Positions 1 to 13,156 of a stretch of 64,000 nt of DNA are shown in pieces (position 1 is the stretch's first letter; every line of letters begins with the position of its first letter). The notes beneath the pieces are model-generated. The model saw only the letters and a program-made list of their open reading frames with translations. It had not been told where the DNA came from and ran no database searches. The position numbers and the translations under genes were made by a program. This stretch comes from Trichodelitschia bisporula (Eukaryota), in assembly GCA_010356995.1 (NCBI GenBank), contig ML996692.1:383933-447932 (forward strand), in the 5' to 3' direction.

Positions 1-1335
1 GACCAGTCCACTACCTCATCCCCGCAATGTACAGTCACCTTTCTTGCGAAAGTTATTTCCTGAACAATCCATCGCCTGGTGAACCACTCCCTTTGCAGAA
101 GCTCGACAAATGCCTGCAACTCTTCCTTGGCTTGTGGTGATGCCAAAGCTTCAGTATTGATGAACTCCAGAATCTCAGAAACAAAACGCATACCAGCATC
201 GCTTGTGGGGAGCTAGGGCCGAGCCAGACACAAAGATTCTCTGCCTTCTGACATATTCCGCCCATTCTGCGTACCTGGGTGTTGCGTTCTTGAACGTCTT
301 CTTGACAGATGCATAGTGCATCAATCCACATCCGCCTAGCAGCGTCAGGGCGTCGGAAATGGTGCAATGCGACATAGAGATTCTGAGTCACAGAATAATC
401 CCTCAGGCCGTCCAGATCCTGAGAGAATATTTGTATGGTCTCTTTCTGTTTGGTGTCTCCCCAGACGTAGGACAGAGTCTCATAGTGAGGGGGCGTATTT
501 AGGGCAGAGGGCCTATCCAGGTCCAAGGTGTACACTTCGAGGGATACCACAATCGGGTCATCGGCGCAGCCAGGCCAGATATCCAGCAGGCGAATCTCAT
601 TTTTCTGAAGAGGACGATATATATTCCACGAAAGTCTTCACTCGATTCCAGATCCTACTCGGTTTGGGATTCATCGTGCAGTGAGTAAGGTCTGGGGACT
701 TGACATCTTTGCGGCGTCTGCGCCGAATGAAATCCATCGTGCCGTGAGGCGCTAGAGGCTTGAAGTTGTTGCGGCGTCCGCTCCAAAGGAAATCAGCTTT
801 GCATCGGCCACTCCAGTTAGGATCTGTTGTAAGATGTGAAAAAGGACTAGGAAGTGCTTACGAGGCTTGTACAAATCGAGTTGAGGACTTTGAAGCGCTT
901 TCGAGTCAGCTCGAGGAAAGAGATGCCTACCCCAGCCTGCTGGGTGGTGAAATGCGGCTTGGGGCCTTTTGAACAGACGACCCCGCTTCAGTAACTCAGC
1001 CGCATGTACGGTAGTACGACTGGTCTCTGAGAAGGATCCAGCCGCAGTGGAGGATGCCACTGTGGGCTAGGATTGGAAGAAGGCATCCAATAAACAGAAC
1101 CGGAGCACAAGGCGATTTCGACAATAGTTCCGCCTTCAGTATCTGCACGCACCCGAGCCTTGCGCGAATAAGTTGGGCATGGCGACATGATGAAGCGGTT
1201 GTCCGTGTCCTCGAAGAATTCCGTGAACACAACTCGAGTTGCACAGTTTGACGTTGGCCGTGGCCCAGGCACGCCAGGTGTGGTCGCAACTTCCGCCTCG
1301 GTTTTCGTAGCGTCGGACCCCTCCAGGCCCGACAT
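1..1335 (-). pseudogene. HET-domain (heterokaryon incompatibility) gene, disrupted; runs off the left end of the window
   Basis: Minus strand carries HET motifs YRPL..EIRLL (551-620), YETLSYVWGD, WIDALCICQED..ERNTQV..M and VWLG. The distal motif WFTRRWIVQE lies in a different frame (<180). Frame breaks near 185-200 and at the (AT)4 run 617-624; stops at 638-640, 655-657 and 988-990. The upstream boundary is uncertain. Confidence 0.75.
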
Positions 1336-3096: not shown

Positions 3097-6000
3097 CTAT
3101 TTACTCTCAGCTTCATTGCTTAGCGCGTCATGGCCAGCAGAATAGTCCAGATCTGACAAGTCCTGGGGTTCGAATTTGTCCGGACCCAATAAGCAGCACT
3201 CATTCTCTCCACCCAAACCCCTCAAGACCTCGGACACGCGAGGCCGTGAATTGCCGTCGGGATCGAGCATGCTCTTCACAAGATCCCGGAGCTGAGTGCT
3301 GTTGCAAAGCTGATTCCGGCGGAAAGAGGGTTTCAGCAAGCTAAGATTATCGAACAGGCTGGAGGAGAATGTGTCGAGCCAATCCCTTACGACTTCAAGG
3401 CTTGATGAATAATAGACATTTCCGACCGAATTGGGAACCAAAGCCTCAAACAGGCGCGTTCGCTGTCGAGGCTCGCTTGAGATGGTAGCCATCATTTCGG
3501 TATAAATGGCGCCAAGGGGGAAGATGTCGGATTTGGTCGAAAAGATCTGCCTGGTTGTGAAGCTGTCACGGTCCATGTACTTCTCGGCTTCTTCGTCTGG
3601 ATTTAAGCCAAAGGTCAGAAGGCCCGAGAGGTAAATCTTATAGTATGTGTCTGGGTCGGTCTCAGTTGGCTGGCACATTCGCACAAGAAGGATTCCCGGA
3701 TGAAGATTTCCGTGGCAGAAACCGGAGGCGTGGATGTGGTTAAGTGCTGAAGCAATGCAGCTGAAGAAGCGCACAATGTGTTGCTTCACCGGACTTGCTG
3801 TCTCGGCACCCCCGAGACGAGGACTCAGACCTTCTTCCGTACTGTTGAGGAACTGGTCCAACGTCCAACTGATGGCTGGATAAATCAACATTGGCATTTT
3901 GTCGGGAAGTTCATAGTAGCCAACGCTTTGCACAATGTGGCTGTGGCTGAACTTCTTGAGCCAGAGATATTCTTCGGGGCCTTGACGCTTGCGCGAGATT
4001 TTGCAAGTAAGGTTCCAGTTTTTCCAGCGAACGCGTCGAAGGTCGAAACCTCTTGTCACCTTCGTTGTCTTCTGGTACTCCAAAGGTACGTCGGAGGCGT
4101 TCGCATACGTCGCAGTATCTCCATGGCCCGTCCAATTGGCAAATGGGTTCTCCGCTGGTGAGCTCGACCCCTCCAGAATCAGAGACTCCAGATGGGGAGC
4201 GCTGCTGTGTTGCCAAATCTTTTCAAACACCTCAAACTTCGAGTTTTCAGTCGCTTCTGCAAAATCTGCCCTCCTTTGCAAACCAGATGCGGATTCGATG
4301 CTGCTGTCCGTGCGATGGGAGTATTTCTGATGCCGGCGCAGATCTTTCTCGTACCGAAAACGCTCGCCGCACACGGGACAGTAATTCTTGCTTGAAGTGA
4401 TAGGGGGAGTTTGTGGGCCTTGGGAGGACGAGATTTCAGTCGCTTTTGTAAAATCGGTCCTCTGCGAGCCAGATGCCGACTTCTCGCTCAAAGCGATAGA
4501 GGAACTTACTGGGCCCCGGGAGGACGTGATTTCAGGCGCTTTTCCAAGATCGGTCGTTTGTAAACCAGATACCGGTTCCGGGCTCTGAGTCGTAACACTT
4601 CCGCGTCGACCACCGATGATCATCTTGGCCGCATCGTCGCCAGCAGGCTTCAGCTCAACTCTCCTACGCTGAAACTCCAACTCAAAGCTGTTGGTCGCAT
4701 CGATGCTCATCCCGGCCTCATCTACAGCCGGCTCGACACCCATGCTCATGGTTCCAGGCCCAGGAGGCACCAGAGCATCAGGGCCAGACTTGCTACCCGA
4801 GCTGCTTTCATGGAGGCTTGAAGTGCGACGGGAACTTGCTGGGCCTTGGGAGGACGATGCCGTTGGCGGAGAGGGGCCATCCGCATCCGATAACCGCTTT
4901 GGGATCTTCGCAGGCATATGACGTGTCAGAGCCAACAGGGTTTCCAAAGATGCCACATGCGCTAAAAGCCTTTCATTGAAGGACCCGAGACGAGGATGAT
5001 TGCTGGCTGGAGCGGAGGGCGATAGAGTGACGTCGCTAAACTCGGCTATGTCGGACAATGCAGAGTAAGCAGTTTCGCTGATGCGGGTCAAAACGCCGTC
5101 AGACCCTTCTAGTCGTTGGAATTCTGGTTCGGCCAGAAGGCGTTGGAGCTCGACGGTCACATTGTTAAGAGAGTACACTAGAGGCAGCTATTAAAGCATG
5201 TTCCAGCAAATAGAACTGGTACGCAAGAGGGAGCGAGAGAAGAAACAATAATGTCCAGAGAAGGTGCAGATAAGAAGAGCAGACTTACACATAAGGCTGG
5301 TCTTGTTCCCCTTGTCTTGTTCGTCCACCAAGTGCGAAACGGTGTTCTTCAATAGGTCCAGGCGCCCCAGAGTTGGAATGACCATTTCCGACGGTTTATG
5401 CGGCCCGTCGCATTGCCAACAGCGCTGGTGATTACAATCGGGGCTTAAACACTGCGGCGTCCGCGGTGTTGTGCTGACGAGCCATGCAGCGTGGCATCGG
5501 CAGCAATGCCATGTTTCCGACCGGATATCGGGGGAGGGGGGTTTGCTAGACGAGGGGTCGGGAATGTCATTGGGACGAGGAGCCGATGAAACTTGGGAAA
5601 GGTCGGCTGGAGCAGTTAGTACGGTGTCGAGCGCTGCCTGAAGTGAAGCAGATTTAGTCGAGTCTGCCGCAATTATGGGCGAGCTCATAAATTCGACAAG
5701 CAAATCTACAATGGAGTTTTTTACTTCACGAGTGGCGTCGGGATGAAGAGCTGCCATGGTGAGGGCGTACACGAATTTGGAAGAGGCGAGTTGTTCCACC
5801 AGCGGCGAGCCACAATGATCGACTAGAAATAAGGTCAGGTCGAGGGTAAGATGCTGTACCACTATGGTTGGCTGCTGGAGGCGCTGCATCAGAGACCGCG
5901 CAACGACTTCAAAACCAAGATCTGGGCGCATAGCGGCCATGCTGTCCACAAGAGACCGCAACTGTTGAGATGTCTCAGGCGATAACCCAGAATGAGTTAC

Positions 6001-9000
6001 GACGGCAACAACGGAGTCGAATTCCCAAGCGATTGCTTCAAAGTCTTCCGACATTTGAATGCGGTCTTTGGCAGGTGAACTAATTGTTGGTGGAACACCT
6101 TTTAGTCCTAGCATGGACGCCACGGACTCTCGCAACTCGGTATCTTGCGCTAGTTGTAGTCGATCACCGTTATCGGGAATCCGTGCAAGGGTAACGCGCA
6201 ATATTGAGTCATCAACTTCAAGCCCATCTAAGCTTGACGAAGCCAACTGCGCCGCATTCGAGTCTCCATATTCACAGTTGATAGTGTGAGTGTAGCTGGC
6301 AGTACGATTCGTTGCCTTGCCAGGACCGGATTTGACCCTGGAAAAGCTTCGGAGTTCTCCAAAAACACGTAGCATTTCCTTCATACGGTCGTCGTCAAAG
6401 GACGCTGGTATGTTGCTGATCGATAGGAGGTTCGGCGAAAGGTTAAGGCCAGGTATAGCCGCACTTGGAGCCTTCCCTTTACCGCCACCCGAAAACCCAA
6501 GACGTTGCGAAACAAAGTTATGACGTTTCAGTCCAGCCTCAATCTCAGGCCACTGGCTAGCCGCCTTCAAGGCCTCGGCATCGATCTTGGCCCCCCGGTC
6601 GAGAAGCAGCGTGATCTTCGACCCCTCGGCTCCGCTCGCCATGGCACATGTAAGAGCTGTACCAGCAGGACCAGAGATATTCACGTCCGCGCCAGCGTCC
6701 ATAAGGCGGATGGCACTCTTCCAGTCATTCATAGAAAGTGCTGCGTGTAGCACAGGCTCTCCTGACTTGTTGCGGGAATTTAGATCGAAGCCTTGCTCCA
6801 CAAGATACCGTAATACATTGACGTTATTGTCGCATGCAGCAAGCAGAATTCGTGAGCGTTCGAACTCTGATGTAGAATCTGTACAGGAGTGAAAGCGGAA
6901 CAAAAGCTCCATAACTTCCACTGGAGCATTCGCAGCGGCGGCCTCTAGGAAGCGGGGCATGTCCTCCGCAGTAATGCGGTGCTTACGAATAACGAGGAAA
7001 TGCTCTACAACTGACGAGTGACCAGTGTTGATGGCAGAATATAGAGGAGTTTCTTCTTTGGCGTTCCTCGCATCAAGGTTCGCCCCGTGATCGAGCAGAA
7101 TCGAGCAAATCGAGCGGTGGCCGTTTTCAGCGGCAAGATGGAGAGGTACATTCCTTTCGTTGTCGAGGTAATTGACGTTCGCGCCAGCGTCAAGCAAAAT
7201 GTGGGTGATCACAGAGATGCCGGCAGAAGCGGCCTGGTGCAGGGCAGAGGAGCCGTCGCGAGAACTCGGAGAGTTCACTGCCACACCAGATTTCAGGAGC
7301 AAATCGACTACGTCGGGATGACCAGCATAAGCTGCGATGTGGAGAGGATTGCCTTTTTTGGGATCTGCCCCTGCTAGGAGGAGAGTCCTAACAATCTTGT
7401 GGAAGCCGCGAGAAGCCGCATATCGAACTGGCGTGTCCACGGTCTCTTCCCCCGCCGAGGCGTCTGCATCCGCGCCTGCTGCGAGAAGTAACTCGACGAC
7501 GGTATCGTGCCCTCCGAGACATGCCAGATGCAGGGCACGAACATTGCTGCGGGGATTTCCTCCCGCTTCGGCATTGGGATCGGCACCGGCCCGGAGGAGG
7601 CATTCCACAATGGCGCGGTACCCCATCGAAGTCGCAATATGCAGGGCTGTGGTCTCCAAAACATTTCGTGAGTTGCTTCCGGAGTTCAGGTTGGCGTCCG
7701 CTCCCTGCGCTATGAGCAGCTGTACCATAGCGAGATTGCCACCCCGACAGGCGACCTGGAGCGGAAACCCTCGAGAAAAACTGAGGGCGTTGGCGTCGGC
7801 GCCGTACTCGAGTATTTTTCGCACTATGTCAAGATCGCCACCGAGAATTGCAGCGTGTAATGGCATACCCAAATCTTTGACGTCTTCGTTGATGTCCTCT
7901 CCTGAAGCAAGGAGCATTTCCACCTCGTCTTTGAGCTTCTGGAACGCGGCCAAATGTAACGGCGAGTCCTTTTTCTGTTCTAAAGCGATGCTCACAGGTC
8001 CAACAGAGCGAAGGGAGTCCGTCTGCGCTTCGGCCCCGGCTGCTGCTTGGTCCGAGTTCATATCGTCGTCTCCGGAATCAACGCCCCGCGGTATGGCGAA
8101 GAGGGCAAGCTGTTCCAGATGCCCTCCAAGATGCTGACGAAACTGGGTCGGTGTAACTGTAATAACGTCGTGCTTTTGAATGTGCGGATTTAACCCCCTG
8201 AGAGTCTGCTCCCATTCGTCACACAAGGGACAGCTGGCGGCAGGAATGCGCTCGACCTGCCGCTGGCTCACGTTGACAACCGCCTGTATTTGCTGCTCAC
8301 CAATCTGCTGCGCGTGCTGGTGGCGTAGATGTTCTTTGAACGCATATTGTGTTGGAAATACCATGGACGAGCAAAAATGACATTGGTAGTCCTTTCGGTG
8401 CATCTCGAGCTCATGTGAAAACCAAGCATGACGGTCGCCGAACATTTTGACGTCACACTCGTCGAATGTGCATATGTATGGCTTCAGATCCTGAAGAACA
8501 TGTTTTCTGGATCGTGGTTAGCCGCTGCTAAAGTACGAAATCACACTCTTGGTGACTGACCTCCAGGAACGCTGGCGGCGCGCTTGAACTATTCCCCAGC
8601 AATATGGGCATTCAAAAGTTGGCGTTCCAGATGAGACCCTTCCCAGCTCTACCACATGCAGCTGGCTGCTACTTGACGTATCTGCGACAGAAGTTGCATC
8701 AGACATCTCAGATTGCAGATCATCGGGAATGTTTTCGATCGCCTCGACAACTGCAGGTAGCAGTGTTGAAGCGGTGGTAGGCGCAAGAGTGCTGGTGGGC
8801 TTCGTTCTGATCGACGATGCACCGTCGCCGCGCATACCTATGTTGGGGTGCAGGTGCTCCTGCTTTTGAGCCCCGGCGTGGGAATCTTGAACTTCTGCTC
8901 TATGGGATCGAGGCTCTGCAGCGAGCTTGTCATGGTGTTCACGGCAGTATCGGAGAAACTGCCGCCTTTGGGTGATGGCCTTCCCTAGGCGGACCGCAAG

Positions 9001-9654
9001 CCACTCGTCCTTCTTGTTGTCGAGTTTTGGAAATTTTTGCCGAACATGGGAAACGTCGAAGGAATCATCAAAGGGGTCCAAAGGCGCTGCCGTGGCCTTG
9101 GCATAACGGTCCCGCGGCGTTGCATTTCTGATCAGCAGCGAAATCTTAAAGAGGCTGGATATGGAGTCCGATATTGACTTGTTCAGCTCCTCGGCCTCGG
9201 AAGCACTTTCAACGACTGAAGAAGCGAGGTCCGGGGGTTCGTCGTCCGAGTCCTCAAATTCGTCTTCAAACGAGACTGAGCCGGTCCTGTTGGGGCGCTC
9301 ACCAGATACAATTTCGGTAACTACAAAGTTCAGCTTATTTCGGCAACAAACGAAAAGTAACTTACGGTCCTCAACAGACTCATGCAGGTCTTCTAGCAGT
9401 TCATGGATGCGTGAAGCTAGCCGTGGGGCATCTCTCAGGCGATGCTCTAACGATGTAGCAACGCGGGCATCTTGGAGCGCGCCGATATTCCCGGCCCAGA
9501 TCCTCAATCGCCCTAGTTGGCCGGTGCAGTCATCGTAGGTGAAAGGGAAGCTCGCAGCCTCCTCGGAGCTTTTGAGGGAACCAAGCAGGTGGTTGAAGCT
9601 TCCCAGGCAATCTTTGGTCTGTTTTGCGATGGGAGAGAGTTCTGAGGCGTCCAT
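3097..9654 (-). CDS. ~2115-aa multidomain protein: helical N-terminus, C2H2 fingers, ankyrin repeats, RRM, VHS, Zn ribbon, C2H2, pseudokinase
   Basis: Three ORFs join in frame through GT..AG introns at 9321-9365, 8507-8560 (WR|KHVLQDLKPYICTF) and 5178-5288 (ATG T|TG TAC). Spliced length 6348 nt is a multiple of 3. Motifs: RLRIWAGNIGA..SLEHRLR, FECPYC, about 14 ankyrin repeats (~7965-6550). Confidence 0.8.
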
Positions 9655-10122
9655 GATGTCGACGGAACCCCTAAAGCTCGAGTTGCCACAAAGCAGCGGC
9701 GTAATCCGAGCTCAAGAGATGCAAAATTCGATCTCGGTCGCATTCATGAGCTACGGAATTTCTGACGCGGGCCTCTCCCTTAAAGTCGAGCCTTGAAGTT
9801 TTGAGTCCTTCGATTCTGCCTCGCTGACATGTTGCCTGGAGGGACTGTAAGATGGCCAAAGCCTCGTGAGTCCAAGGCGCTTTGAGCTTTGAGGATATGA
9901 TGTCGAGGTGAGGCTTTCCCGTCCCCACACCTGAAGAGGCTCTCTTGCAGCGCCAAGCGAGGGGCTGAACTTGGGTGATCTGCGGCTGGAGCCTGTTCAG
10001 CTCTGGCCCCCGCTCCCCCGCAGTGGCTCGTGGCTGGCCGAACTTAACGGCACTGTTCTCGTCGGACCCATTCAAAGTTGATGTTCGGCGGTCTCCTCAC
10101 TTACAACGCCTTTACCCTCGCG

Positions 10123-12056
10123 ATGAGCGGCATTGAGGTGGCGGGCCTCGTGCTCGGTGCGTTTCCCCTCTTAATAACTGCCTTGGAGCATTATCGTGAA
10201 AGCGCAGAGGTCCTGTCAGATTGGTGGAAGTTCAAGCGCGAGTATCGCAAGTGGAAGGATGAGGTGCGCTTCCATCAACTCGCCTTCGAACAGAACCTCG
10301 AAAAGTACCTATTGCCATTGATTGTCGATGATGATGAGCTTCAGTCTCTCATCTCCGACCCGGGTGGTGAACGATGGAGGCATCCAGAGCTTGAGGAGAG
10401 GTTGAAGACGCGCCTACCTCGCGCTTACGACCTCTACATTTCCACCATCGGAGATATGAACGAAACGATGGTAGAGCTCCAAAAGATGATGGGAGTGGAC
10501 AAAGTTCAGTTGCAGGAAAAGCTCAATGCTGAACGACCGGTACGTTCTTGTGGACGTCTGGGCATAAATTACCTGCCGCTCATGCTTCTCCAGGATTCGC
10601 CCTCCGAGAAGAAAGCCAAAAGCAAGCGCAAAAGACTTCCATCCAAGACCAATTTGGAATATGAGTTCCATCGCTTGAAGGCGAGCTTTGGCAAAGCAGA
10701 ACGAGCGAAGCTCTTTGGCGAAATATCCCATTACAATTTAAGATTGAAAGAACTCTTGGACACCAGCGACGAAATCAGCTCCTTACGTGCAACGAGACGC
10801 AACACGACAAAGGACCTGAGTCTCGTCAAGGGACTATCTACCTTTTGGAGGCATGCGACCAATGTCTTCAGGCTTGTGTATAAGGCGTGGAAGTGCGACT
10901 GTTCATCTCATCATCGCATAAACCTTTTGCTGGAGCATCGAACCACAATATCCGAGATCCGATTCAACTTACTCCTCCTCTATGCCCAAAATCTTCCTGA
11001 GCGCAAAGATGGCTGCTGGAGGTCTCTTGAAGCGCACATAAGTCTCGTCGAGGGTCTTTCCACTTCTATCTCCGAAGTCTCCCTTATAGGTCTGCGTTCC
11101 AAATCGGAGACAACGTTTGAAAGACGTCCACGGTCGAACCTTCGTTCGTACACCAACGAACCTTCCTTCAGCAAGACGTCAACGATGTGAGCCCAGGCCA
11201 CGTTATTTCGTGATGCCGTAAGACTGACAGTAGTAGGATCGACTCTACGGAATTGCCTCCACCAGCAGCAGTCCAGAAGCCATCTGTGGCCTGGGAGATT
11301 ACCCCACCTCCCTCTCGGGGCGCCAGCTTCCTCGAATCTGATGCAAGTGAAATCAGCAACCTTTGCCATTCGATCATGACCTGCGGCACACAAGAAAAGT
11401 GCCTAGGGTTTGTGAGGACGGATGAGCATTGCTACGTGTTGAATCCTGTCGCCATGGGTTCGTCCCCGCTGGACGAGAGCGACGCTGTGACACTAGGAAA
11501 CTTGCTTCGGAAAGACCTCAACTTTAAGCTCACGCGCAAACAGCGCTTCCAAGTTGCACTCACGCTGGCTAGCTCGCAGTTACAGCTGGACTCGACACCC
11601 TGGCTGCAGTCTGGTTGGAGCAAAGACGATATCGTTTTCCTTTGCCAGCCAGAGTCCGCCCGTATCGATGTTGAGCAGCCGTACATTTCCAGGGGTTCGA
11701 ATCTCGTCGCCACTGCCGCAAAGGGGCAGTCTACGGAGAATAGCATCCCCCAGCTGGGAATGATTCTTTTGGAGTTGTGCTTCAATACAGCATTTGAGAA
11801 CCACGAGATCCGCAAGAAGTACCTCTTGCCAAATGGCCAGTCGACTCCGTATATGGACCTCGCTGCGGCACTCGAATGGTGCAACCAGGAGGCGGCAGAA
11901 GAAGCTGGCCCGGATTTTGCGGATGCGGTCAAGTGGTGCCTTGGACAGTTTGGGTCCGCATCTTTGGATGAAACCAAAAGGCAAGAGCTTTATGAGAAAG
12001 TTGTGAAGCCGCTACAGTTCTGCCATAAACAATTCGAAATCAGCAGTCAGATGTGA
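10123..12056 (+). CDS. ~609-aa protein with HeLo-like N-terminus and kinase-like C-terminal domain (DUF7580-like, from recall)
   Basis: Starts MSGIEVAGLVLGAFPLLITALEHY; introns 10540-10593 and 11187-~11236; C-terminus QRFQVALTLASSQLQLDSTPWL..WSKDDIVF..LGMILLELCF..FADAVKWCL. Confidence 0.8.
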
Positions 12057-13156
12057 AATAAGACATCTGCCGAAAGTCTAGAAGCAGTTGGAGGTCAAGG
12101 CCGTCAGGACATTGCATACGGAGTACGGCATTGGGCATTGTGAATACAGCATGTTACAGCCGAGGTATGCTATTCCCAAGCCCTGGGGAGTCCTTTGCTG
12201 ATGTAATATGACAGTCAGAGGAGCGCTTGTGTTAATCGGTGGATTTGAGCCTTTGTACAAACAGAAGGCTGTACGACATGGTTACATGCATATTGGGCGC
12301 CAGAGGTGCAGCATGCAGGGCAGAGAGGGGGGGTTAAGCATCTGGCGGGCAAGTCAATAGCATTCGAGAGTTTGGTTCAAATACCCTGGCGGATCATTTG
12401 TCATGAAAAGCAATTGAATATCCCGTTGGGATTCATGTCGGTTATAGATGTGGTAACTCCGCTCTGACTGAAGCCAGAGCGATGGTACGAGTATTGGCCT
12501 CAGGCACCGACATGGAATAGTTGTCCAGGCGTTTATGACGCATATAGGATGGGTTTCGAAGTGATCGATATTTTGACATTTTGAGCCTGGTCACATCCCT
12601 GCTACCTACATGGATACCCCTGCTGTGCCAAGGCTGATAGACCCAGAGACGCCAGTATCTCTCCCAAATCACCCCCATCATGATATACTGCTTCCTAGGC
12701 TTTTATGTAATGATAACGACGTCTATATATCATCTACTAGGTATAATAGATATGTAAGCTCATTTCGGTGACGTTATAGTATCTAAAAGTATGGTAGTTA
12801 TGATAAGCTGCTGCCAAAGTGTTGCCAAAAAGCTCCTTTCTGTGGCATTTGGACATTCGGTGGCAAAGTCACTAGAGCTAAGCCTATTTAAGAAATAAGT
12901 AGGCCCTAAGCGCGCTTGACAGGGGGACCCTGCAAAATGCTGCATTTTAGGGGTCCAAATGCGGCACTTTGCAGAAACGCTTCCGGTATTTTCATTTATG
13001 GATGTCTGACGATGCCTAATTTCTGCCTTAGGCAAGAAAAACTGGTATTTTAGGGTCCAAAATGTTAAATGTCGATCACTTCGAAACCCACCCTAAATTT
13101 TCACAGCTCTTTATAGCCCCGCCATCACCATCAGCAGCAAATCCGATGCTCTAAAA

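Follow-up and report, generated by a model that had tools for sequence, protein, structure and literature searches.

A divergent gene pair in Trichodelitschia bisporula

The DNA analysed here (the window, a stretch of 64,000 nucleotides (nt) from Trichodelitschia bisporula) holds a single copy of a pair of genes that diverge from a short spacer, i.e. a big gene on the minus strand and a small gene on the plus strand. A first-pass annotation of the sequence had placed their start codons at ATG 9654 (minus) and ATG 10123 (plus), with 468 bp in between and 609 amino acids (aa) for the small product, all of which is confirmed by the gene models and by complementary DNA (cDNA) contigs. The parts of the pair are the following.

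9654-9366, 9320-8561, 8506-5289 and 5177-3097, minus strand: coding exons of the big gene, 2115 aa, stop codon at 3097-3099
9321-9365, 8507-8560 and 5178-5288, minus strand: introns of the big gene, from a cDNA contig, reading CT..AC on the plus strand
9655-10122, no strand: spacer between the two ATGs, 468 bp, shared bidirectional promoter region
10123-10539, 10594-11186 and 11237-12056, plus strand: coding exons of the small gene, 609 aa, stop codon at 12054-12056
10540-10593 and 11187-11236, plus strand: introns of the small gene, with GT..AG ends, seen in a cDNA contig

The cDNA comes from two small public runs, neither registered as RNA, that contain the region as contigs, the depth of which is in both runs uninformative on expression level. 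Since every stretch skipped by these contigs is bounded by GT..AG on the strand of its gene, they represent cDNA. The contig of the small gene covers 10034-12164, is spliced at both introns and matches the 609-aa model, which in turn is identical to the deposited protein EJ06DRAFT_528881 (P0001; P-numbers label proteins, and L-numbers metagenome loci). For the big gene, each run contains one contig of 6.7 kb, running from 9921, or in the other run from 9896, down to 3000, the low end of the stretch that was compared with the cDNA contigs. Because one contig spans the whole coding region, the minus-strand open reading frames (ORFs) belong to one gene, the spliced translation of which has 2115 codons and zero internal stops; the relative P0068 of V. 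inaequalis (1747 aa) aligns with it from 9630 to 3079, in three blocks. The coordinates first given for this gene were right, whereas the 45-nt intron at 9321-9365 had been overlooked. Into the spacer, the contigs of the two genes extend as far as 9921 (minus) and 10034 (plus), which leaves a gap of at most 112 bp, and as the two sets come this close to one another it follows that the promoter region is shared.

Conservation of the head-to-head arrangement

The alignment of the small family was scanned against metagenome contigs, which yielded 80 loci (with the small gene oriented plus). Pairing was counted from the side of the small gene, i.e. the N-domain of the partner was sought upstream of each small gene, by tblastn, the queries being the N-domain of the window and residues 1-450 of 57 relatives. 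A locus was considered informative if the small-gene start is preceded by at least 800 bp, and at every one of these loci (48/48) an N-domain of the big family lies directly upstream on the minus strand, with estimated spacers of about 240-900 bp. The 48 paired loci fall into 29 clusters at 90% nt identity, all of which are paired (29/29). The 32 uninformative loci comprise 11 with at most 771 bp upstream, 19 without a small-gene start and two that are decayed (L037, L076). The 80 loci, which amount to 975,985 bases, gave no match to the N-domain at any other place, and L022 has one distant match from the partner search, in the finger region only. Local synteny as the full explanation of the pairing is ruled out by the 29 distinct and diverged paired loci.

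The same adjacency is found in four named fungi. In four assemblies of V. inaequalis, the accessions or locus tags of the nearest relatives of the two genes are consecutive, in a Mollisiaceae sp. they are adjoining (EG329_006583/006584), as they are in Beauveria asiatica (ARSEF4850_008513/008512), and in Melanomma pulvis-pyrius both genes lie on a single contig of 9,973 bp. The expectation of the first-pass annotation, that C2H2 genes with the WAGNIGA N-terminus sit head-to-head with members of the small family while their tails vary, is thus borne out. Monosporascus sp. 5C6A and Oleoguttula sp. CCFEE 5521 each have one member per family, on different contigs, and these split members may come from different pairs. 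Diplodia seriata and Hypoxylon trugodes are each listed with two members, and one metagenome contains three distinct pairs (L007, L010, L012).

Among the pairs, the median p-distance of the N-terminal part of the small protein is 0.62. Distances in this part are correlated with those in the N-block of the big protein (Spearman 0.40, reached by 3 of 2000 permutations), nearly as the two halves of the small protein are correlated with each other (Spearman 0.44, reached by none of 2000 permutations). The pairs are old, and the correlated distances agree with duplication and descent as a unit. One short promoter serves the two genes in both directions, and they are passed on jointly. A search of 30 spacers for a shared cis-motif gave no result above resampling (top 7-mer in 10 spacers versus a resampled maximum of 11, and 7 versus 7 for the 8-mer).

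A decayed copy of the module was observed at L076:9664-11357 and L037:1690-3389. It retains residues 1-111 of the N-domain, abutting the small gene from residue 233 or 374 without a spacer. In L076, a stray fragment of a small-family N-terminus also occurs at 5413-5640.

The small protein: a kinase-like domain behind a helical N-terminus

The small protein divides into two parts.

10123-10893, plus strand: N-terminal helical part with a hydrophobic helix (aa 3-28), a bundle and a long helix (aa 173-237), from the structural model
10894-12053, plus strand: kinase-like domain (DUF7580), aa 240-609, with a disordered insert at aa 301-366, from Pfam (PF24476, 2.3e-19) and fold matches

Pfam finds DUF7580 alone, in the last exon. 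With scores of 70.7-80.3 bits against a cut-off of 27, and with 70 of the 71 aligned relatives matching as well, the small protein can be assigned by its sequence to the DUF7580 family. This family is large (2023 representative clusters at E ≤ 1e-3), with named members in at least five ascomycete classes.

The structural model built from 71 relatives (mean predicted local distance difference test (pLDDT) 82.9, predicted template modelling score (pTM) 0.73) consists of helices over residues 3-237, including a single helix of 65 residues (173-237), followed by a two-lobed alpha/beta domain (240-609). In a Foldseek search the top 50 PDB rows are all kinases or pseudokinases (the best being Pan3, with E 1.3e-3 and probability 1.00), VIA-align returns Z scores of 8-9.4 to TNNI3K, CRAF, CTR1, RIPK1/2/3 and IRAK, and AtMLKL3 (6ka4) aligns with residues 205-608 of the model with Z 8.0 and a root-mean-square deviation of 4.6 over 191 aligned residues. 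As modelled, the C-terminal fold is kinase-like. Neither HRD nor DFG, a Gly-loop or the VAIK lysine is among the near-invariant columns of the family, and since these catalytic motifs are missing the kinase-like domain is a pseudokinase. The C-terminus itself is a well-folded helix of this domain, with a pLDDT of about 90 or higher, so that a prion-forming region could not be accommodated at this end.

The N-terminus starts with a near-invariant set of residues (M1 G3 E5 G8 L11 P15). An ESM feature search with residues 1-240 places it nearest to HeLo clusters, at 0.93 (173 of 256 features in common) and 0.90, followed by clusters of PigL_N and SesA, and one source labels the relative P0248 as a HeLo-domain protein. 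The structural matches of this part by VIA are a designed repeat, THATCH, Sw-5b SD and the coiled-coil (CC) domain of Rx. The earlier description of the small protein, i.e. a HeLo-like hydrophobic N-terminus and a kinase-like domain, therefore holds in its second half on the strength of the fold searches, while in its first half it has the ESM features and the fold class behind it, with Pfam HeLo matching 1 of 71 members only; the label 'HeLo-like' seems reasonable but unproven. The small protein is MLKL-shaped, and is not filed under the MLKL or the HeLo family.

Two side observations concern this protein. A second in-frame ATG is present at 10081, inside the cDNA contig (which starts at 10034), with T as its -3 base versus G at ATG 10123; a start at 10081 would put 14 extra residues before the Met1 that is strictly conserved in the family. 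Such an N-terminal extension could matter, the first helix being the presumed active part. Furthermore, C240, C242, H246, C380 and C571 are each at least 90% conserved in the family (about 10894-11940 in the window), and could make up a zinc site by which the N-lobe of the kinase-like domain is held together.

The big protein: a conserved N-domain and fingers with a composite tail

The big protein is made up as follows.

8875-9654, minus strand: helical N-domain, aa 1-245, with the WAGNIGA motif at aa 53-59, without a Pfam family, from homologues and a model
8086-8613, minus strand: about four C2H2-type fingers, aa 333-490, ending in HLEQLALFAIPRG, from conserved alignment columns
6571-7965, minus strand: ankyrin repeat array, about aa 531-995 (Ank_2 1.3e-61, Ank 1.5e-57)
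5686-5904, minus strand: VHS-like segment (PF00790 VHS 4.2e-8, 33.6 bits, cut-off 29.8)
4315-4383, minus strand: single C2H2 finger (zf-C2H2 5.4e-4, under the Pfam cut-off)
3223-3987, minus strand: C-terminal kinase-like domain (Pkinase 3.5e-9, profile positions 43-258 of 263)

This succession of Pfam matches (C2H2, ankyrin, VHS-like, C2H2, Pkinase) agrees with the initial reading of the gene as C2H2 and ankyrin repeats with a string of unrelated domains. The C2H2 cluster is interrupted by the intron at 8507-8560. At a threshold of E ≤ 1e-3 the N-domain has 57 homologues, with E values between 1e-70 and 1e-21; the majority are annotated with PF26082 (zf-C2H2_AcuF), and the conserved finger columns are seen in the alignment. 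By sequence, the big protein thus belongs with the zf-C2H2_AcuF family carrying a conserved helical N-domain, a membership that is taken from the annotation of the homologues, as the Pfam release that was scanned predates PF26082. The kinase-like end has HGN for HRD and LSG for DFG (in the translation, with positions judged by eye) and is probably a pseudokinase; a sequence search of the PDB with this end gave no match at E ≤ 0.01. Neither gene of the pair has a Pfam match to NACHT or NB-ARC, even at E ≤ 5, in line with what had been noted at first.

In a model built from 46 relatives (pLDDT 71.2), residues 5-181 of the N-domain form a four-helix bundle. Its best rows in VIA are Sw-5b SD (Z 11.7), GCP4 (11.4), Rx CC (10.6), the four-helix bundle of MLKL (9.1), the CC-R domain of NRG1.1 (9.1), the N-domain of AtMLKL3 (8.9), MLA13 (8.5) and HET-S (7.3), to be read against a noise bar for helical bundles of about Z 13. 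Foldseek gave nothing better than E 0.2 with this domain, and a search of the ESM Atlas with the N-domain of a family member (P0013, residues 1-250) returned its own family only. The two proteins of the pair are not related to one another as far as could be detected, with no homology between their N-domains by profile comparison (hhalign probability 0.25%) and no likeness between their kinase-like domains by BLASTP.

Between the ankyrins and the VHS-like part, at about aa 1040-1125 (~6180-6440, minus strand), the big protein allows an RRM-like reading, for which there is no Pfam match; its relative P0044 carries RRM_1. A Cys-rich stretch at aa 1348-1385 matched no family.

Predicted complex of the two proteins

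A prediction of the complex had also been proposed in the first-pass annotation, and the one made with the full small protein and a 364-residue read-through of the N-domain passes its controls, with ipSAE values of 0.67, 0.67 and 0.68 against 0.00 for the best of three controls. Of 78 solved complexes 51 attain the mark set for ipSAE, as do 2 of 108 mismatched pairs. The runs share at least 73% of their contacts, with a pLDDT of at least 60 for the partner. By the verdict of the tool, the model supports binding within the pair, short of showing it.

On the side of the big protein, the predicted interface consists of residues 41-56, including I52, W53, G55 and N56 of WAGNIGA, and of residues 153-179 (138-164 in the spliced protein), which form a conserved helix (SE..EL..LF.IS.LIR). 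On the side of the small protein it involves helix 2 (35-61), R437, the EEAGP loop (557-564) and the last helix (598-603). In this arrangement WAGNIGA is placed against the invariant EAG loop of the small family, and R437, E559 and G561 (conserved at 90-99%) are all part of the predicted interface. Interface residues of the big protein are more conserved than its other residues (0.554 versus 0.465, p 0.007).

Variation of the partner tails

What follows the N-domain and fingers differs greatly between relatives of the big gene. In annotated relatives it may be ankyrin, TPR, NB-ARC (e.g. P0033 of Boeremia exigua), kinase, SH3 with RhoGAP, PNP_UDP, cNMP-binding, a septin/dynamin-type GTPase, PHD, ARID, bromodomain, MIF4G, Zn2Cys6, or Sec3-PH with HR1 and RING, and CCCH domains occur as well. 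For the metagenome loci, 95 of 226 minus-strand ORFs were scanned (of at least 170 aa and within 6 kb, in 27 representative loci), their assignment to the partner gene being by strand and order only. Their matches comprise ANK, an NPHP3_N P-loop with ANK, TPR, kinase with ANK, tyrosine phosphatase, C2, Sec3-PH/RING, DUF7104, DUF6590, PigL_N, Myb, annexin and Bud6_N.

The partner at L007:4174-8460 (minus) has an NPHP3_N P-loop NTPase (2.4e-22) followed by a very long ankyrin array, i.e. by its sequence an architecture like that of NOD-like receptors (NLRs), put behind the N-domain/finger module. At L039:4295-6060 (minus), downstream of the N-domain of the partner, two ORFs match PigL_N (PF17111, the HeLo-like N family; 1.3e-41 and 8.8e-14); either the partner may have a HeLo-like domain of its own here, or the ORFs may belong to a third gene.

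A possible sensor/executor module

The region is tentatively read as one copy of a two-gene sensor/executor module that is widespread in filamentous ascomycetes, in which an MLKL-shaped executor is held by its partner, a proposal that we consider slightly more doubtful than probable. Linkage, varied tails and the predicted complex all lend weight to the original suggestion of a sensor/executor pair outside the NLR class, whereas its functional part, i.e. a role in cell death, immunity or allorecognition, is something that we infer. In the proposed mechanism, the N-domain of the big protein would bind the small protein across the C-lobe of the kinase-like domain and helix 2 of the bundle, a grip that would hold the small protein inactive. 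An event sensed by the variable tail would then alter this grip, upon which the freed small protein could oligomerise and its N-terminal helix enter membranes, the outcome being cell death or a membrane signal. A hydrophobic first helix that attacks membranes is described for HET-S, MLKL and plant CC domains in passages of PMC12881547 and PMC9815663.

A number of points weigh against this reading. All VIA rows of the N-domain of the big protein (Z 7.3-11.7) and those of the N-terminal part of the small protein (Z 8.5-10.3) are under the noise bar, which is at about 13; only one of the 71 members of the small family is matched by Pfam HeLo, with an E of 0.045; and a profile of the 71 relatives compared with all PDB sequences brought up no relative, with MLKL absent at E ≤ 10. 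The complex was predicted without alignments, with a partner chain that held 15 intron-encoded residues (positions 97-111); blind-drawn pairs of neighbouring genes pass the same test in 7 of 44 cases, and the interface residues of the small protein are not more conserved than its others (0.44 versus 0.424, p 0.13). Many of the partner tails are ordinary cell-biology domains and not classical immune repeats, the four-finger C2H2 cluster is equally compatible with a DNA-binding regulator, and a non-lethal regulatory complex agrees with the same data.

Such a non-lethal complex is the alternative that survives best, though we think it rather unlikely. It would consist of a zinc-finger regulator or scaffold and an obligate pseudokinase partner, e.g. 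a membrane tether or retention factor, so that the small protein sets where and when the big protein acts, and divergent transcription merely keeps both in balance. Pseudokinases frequently serve as scaffolds, and the predicted binding is equally compatible with this arrangement. It would also suit the four conserved C2H2 fingers that adjoin the N-domain, the relatives with Zn2Cys6, Myb, PHD, ARID, bromodomain or CCCH domains, and the tails that point to cortex and polarity (C2, annexin, Sec3-PH, Bud6_N, RhoGAP/SH3). It accounts less well for the strictly conserved hydrophobic Met1 helix and the HeLo-like features, which are typical of membrane-attacking executors, while copy-number variation alongside HET and NLR-like tails (P0033, L007) would be unusual for housekeeping regulators, and the 30 spacers yielded no common DNA motif.

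It is improbable that the two genes are co-regulated neighbours without contact between their products, in which case the promoter would be kept for expression and the interface would be a false positive. The 7 of 44 blind-drawn pairs that pass the complex test are in agreement with this, as is the non-significant conservation of the interface on the side of the small protein. However, all distinct loci (29/29) retain adjacency and orientation at a protein divergence of at least 60%, with the remainder of the big gene exchanged, which argues for selection on the unit of N-domain and small gene, and the predicted contacts coincide with the hallmark motifs of the two families.

A selfish toxin/antidote element in the manner of spore killers, without benefit to the host, and spreading or persisting because loss of the antidote partner is lethal, would account for the tight linkage and co-inheritance, the several copies in some genomes (Diplodia seriata, Hypoxylon trugodes, L007/L010/L012), the varying copy number of the family and the one decayed copy (L076/L037), but is very improbable, since the occurrence of the pair in at least five ascomycete classes at a median p-distance of 0.62 suggests long vertical retention, and since the antidote-like partner is very large, with elaborate and varied sensor-like tails that an antidote does not need.

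Relation to known two-gene systems

Among the closest known systems, MLKL (including the plant proteins AtMLKL1-3) is like the small protein in the order of its parts, namely a helical bundle whose first helix is directed to membranes, then a long helix, then a pseudokinase at the C-terminus. In contrast to this shared layout there is no detectable sequence homology, and the small protein is in a separate Pfam family and has a disordered insert of 65 residues. Control would also differ, as MLKL is phosphorylated by RIPK3, whereas here a genetically linked binding partner is proposed.

As two-gene units, het-S/nwd2 and HELLP/PNT1 are conserved across fungi according to passages of PMC10197012 and PMC12881547, and have in common with the present pair that a HeLo-type candidate executor adjoins a large protein with sensor-like repeats. 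Their partners, however, are NLRs that template a short amyloid motif onto the C-terminal prion-forming domain of the executor. In the present pair, a globular pseudokinase forms the end of the executor, a NOD domain is usually absent from the partner, and the predicted contact is that of a folded N-domain on folded domains. In gasdermin clusters (rcd-1, het-Q1/het-Q2), as described in parts of PMC10197012, an N-terminal activating module is combined with a variable ANK/TPR/WD or other tail. The gasdermin/protease clusters thus share with the pair a large protein with a conserved N-module and variable tail next to a small executor gene, but neither gene of the pair has a gasdermin or protease domain, and binding is proposed instead of cleavage.

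The plant pairs RGA4/RGA5, RRS1/RPS4 and Pik-1/Pik-2 are likewise divergent, with a shared promoter, extra domains in one member and a presumed executor as the other. The four-helix N-domains of the present pair are alike in shape to plant CC domains (Rx CC, Sw-5b SD), under the noise bar, whereas unlike the plant paired NLRs neither gene of the window has an NB-ARC or NACHT domain. Head-to-head NLR pairs are rare in Sordariales, as stated in passages of PMC12258605.

Passages of PMC13412767, the one paper in which PF26082 was encountered, list zf-C2H2_AcuF, together with HET, among the most copy-number-variable families of N. crassa strains. No publication on DUF7580 came up in the literature search. 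Two-gene clusters of the het-S/nwd2 and gasdermin/protease types are treated in the main-text passages of reviews and surveys on fungal cell death; in the main text (supplements aside) of the fungal cell-death and NLR literature that was found, the pair is not described. Both DUF7580 and zf-C2H2_AcuF are already in Pfam, with an unknown or nominal function, and it is their pairing of which we found no description. The pair therefore looks like a further type of fungal two-gene sensor/executor cluster, of presumed function.

As a sensor/executor unit it would be the third, abundant one for fungal cell death, beside the HeLo/NLR amyloid and gasdermin/protease pairs, with an MLKL-like architecture of animals and plants joined to a genetically linked regulator. 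The further generalisation, that filamentous ascomycetes have a large unrecognised class of non-NLR immune or surveillance modules composed of an MLKL-like executor and its own sensor, tied to it through the common promoter and a dedicated binding domain, with exchangeable decoy or guard tails, is one that we would sooner doubt than accept. If true, the tails (kinase, phosphatase, RhoGAP, exocyst PH, chromatin readers, ankyrin/TPR) would be integrated decoys or guards of the processes under attack. Such modules would then be a fungal counterpart, built from different parts, of the plant paired NLRs with integrated domains, with an MLKL-type killer that is controlled kinase-free. This would make MLKL-type control without RIPK3, as well as integrated-decoy sensing in fungi, approachable, and it would provide a functional lead for two large families (DUF7580 and zf-C2H2_AcuF).

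Flanking sequence

Downstream of the small gene, both of its cDNA contigs depart from the genome at 12164 and resume with sequence near 12215. This suggests that the 3' untranslated region holds an intron of ~50 nt, from 12165 to about 12214, with an acceptor beyond the compared stretch (which ends at 12200).

One neighbouring feature lies on the other side of the pair and is regarded as context, not as part of the module.

3-637, minus strand: HET-domain ORF (PF06985, 3.8e-11)

This ORF sits 2.46 kb past the stop of the big gene. The first-pass annotation had reported a HET pseudogene at ~2 kb, of which the HET domain and the approximate distance are confirmed. There is no in-frame ATG ahead of the conserved N-terminus, the frame changes near 212-240 and the ORF leaves the window, so that it may be a pseudogene or, alternatively, a gene with introns. 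Another HET-domain ORF (L050:3-1526) was observed at ~4.5 kb from a related pair.

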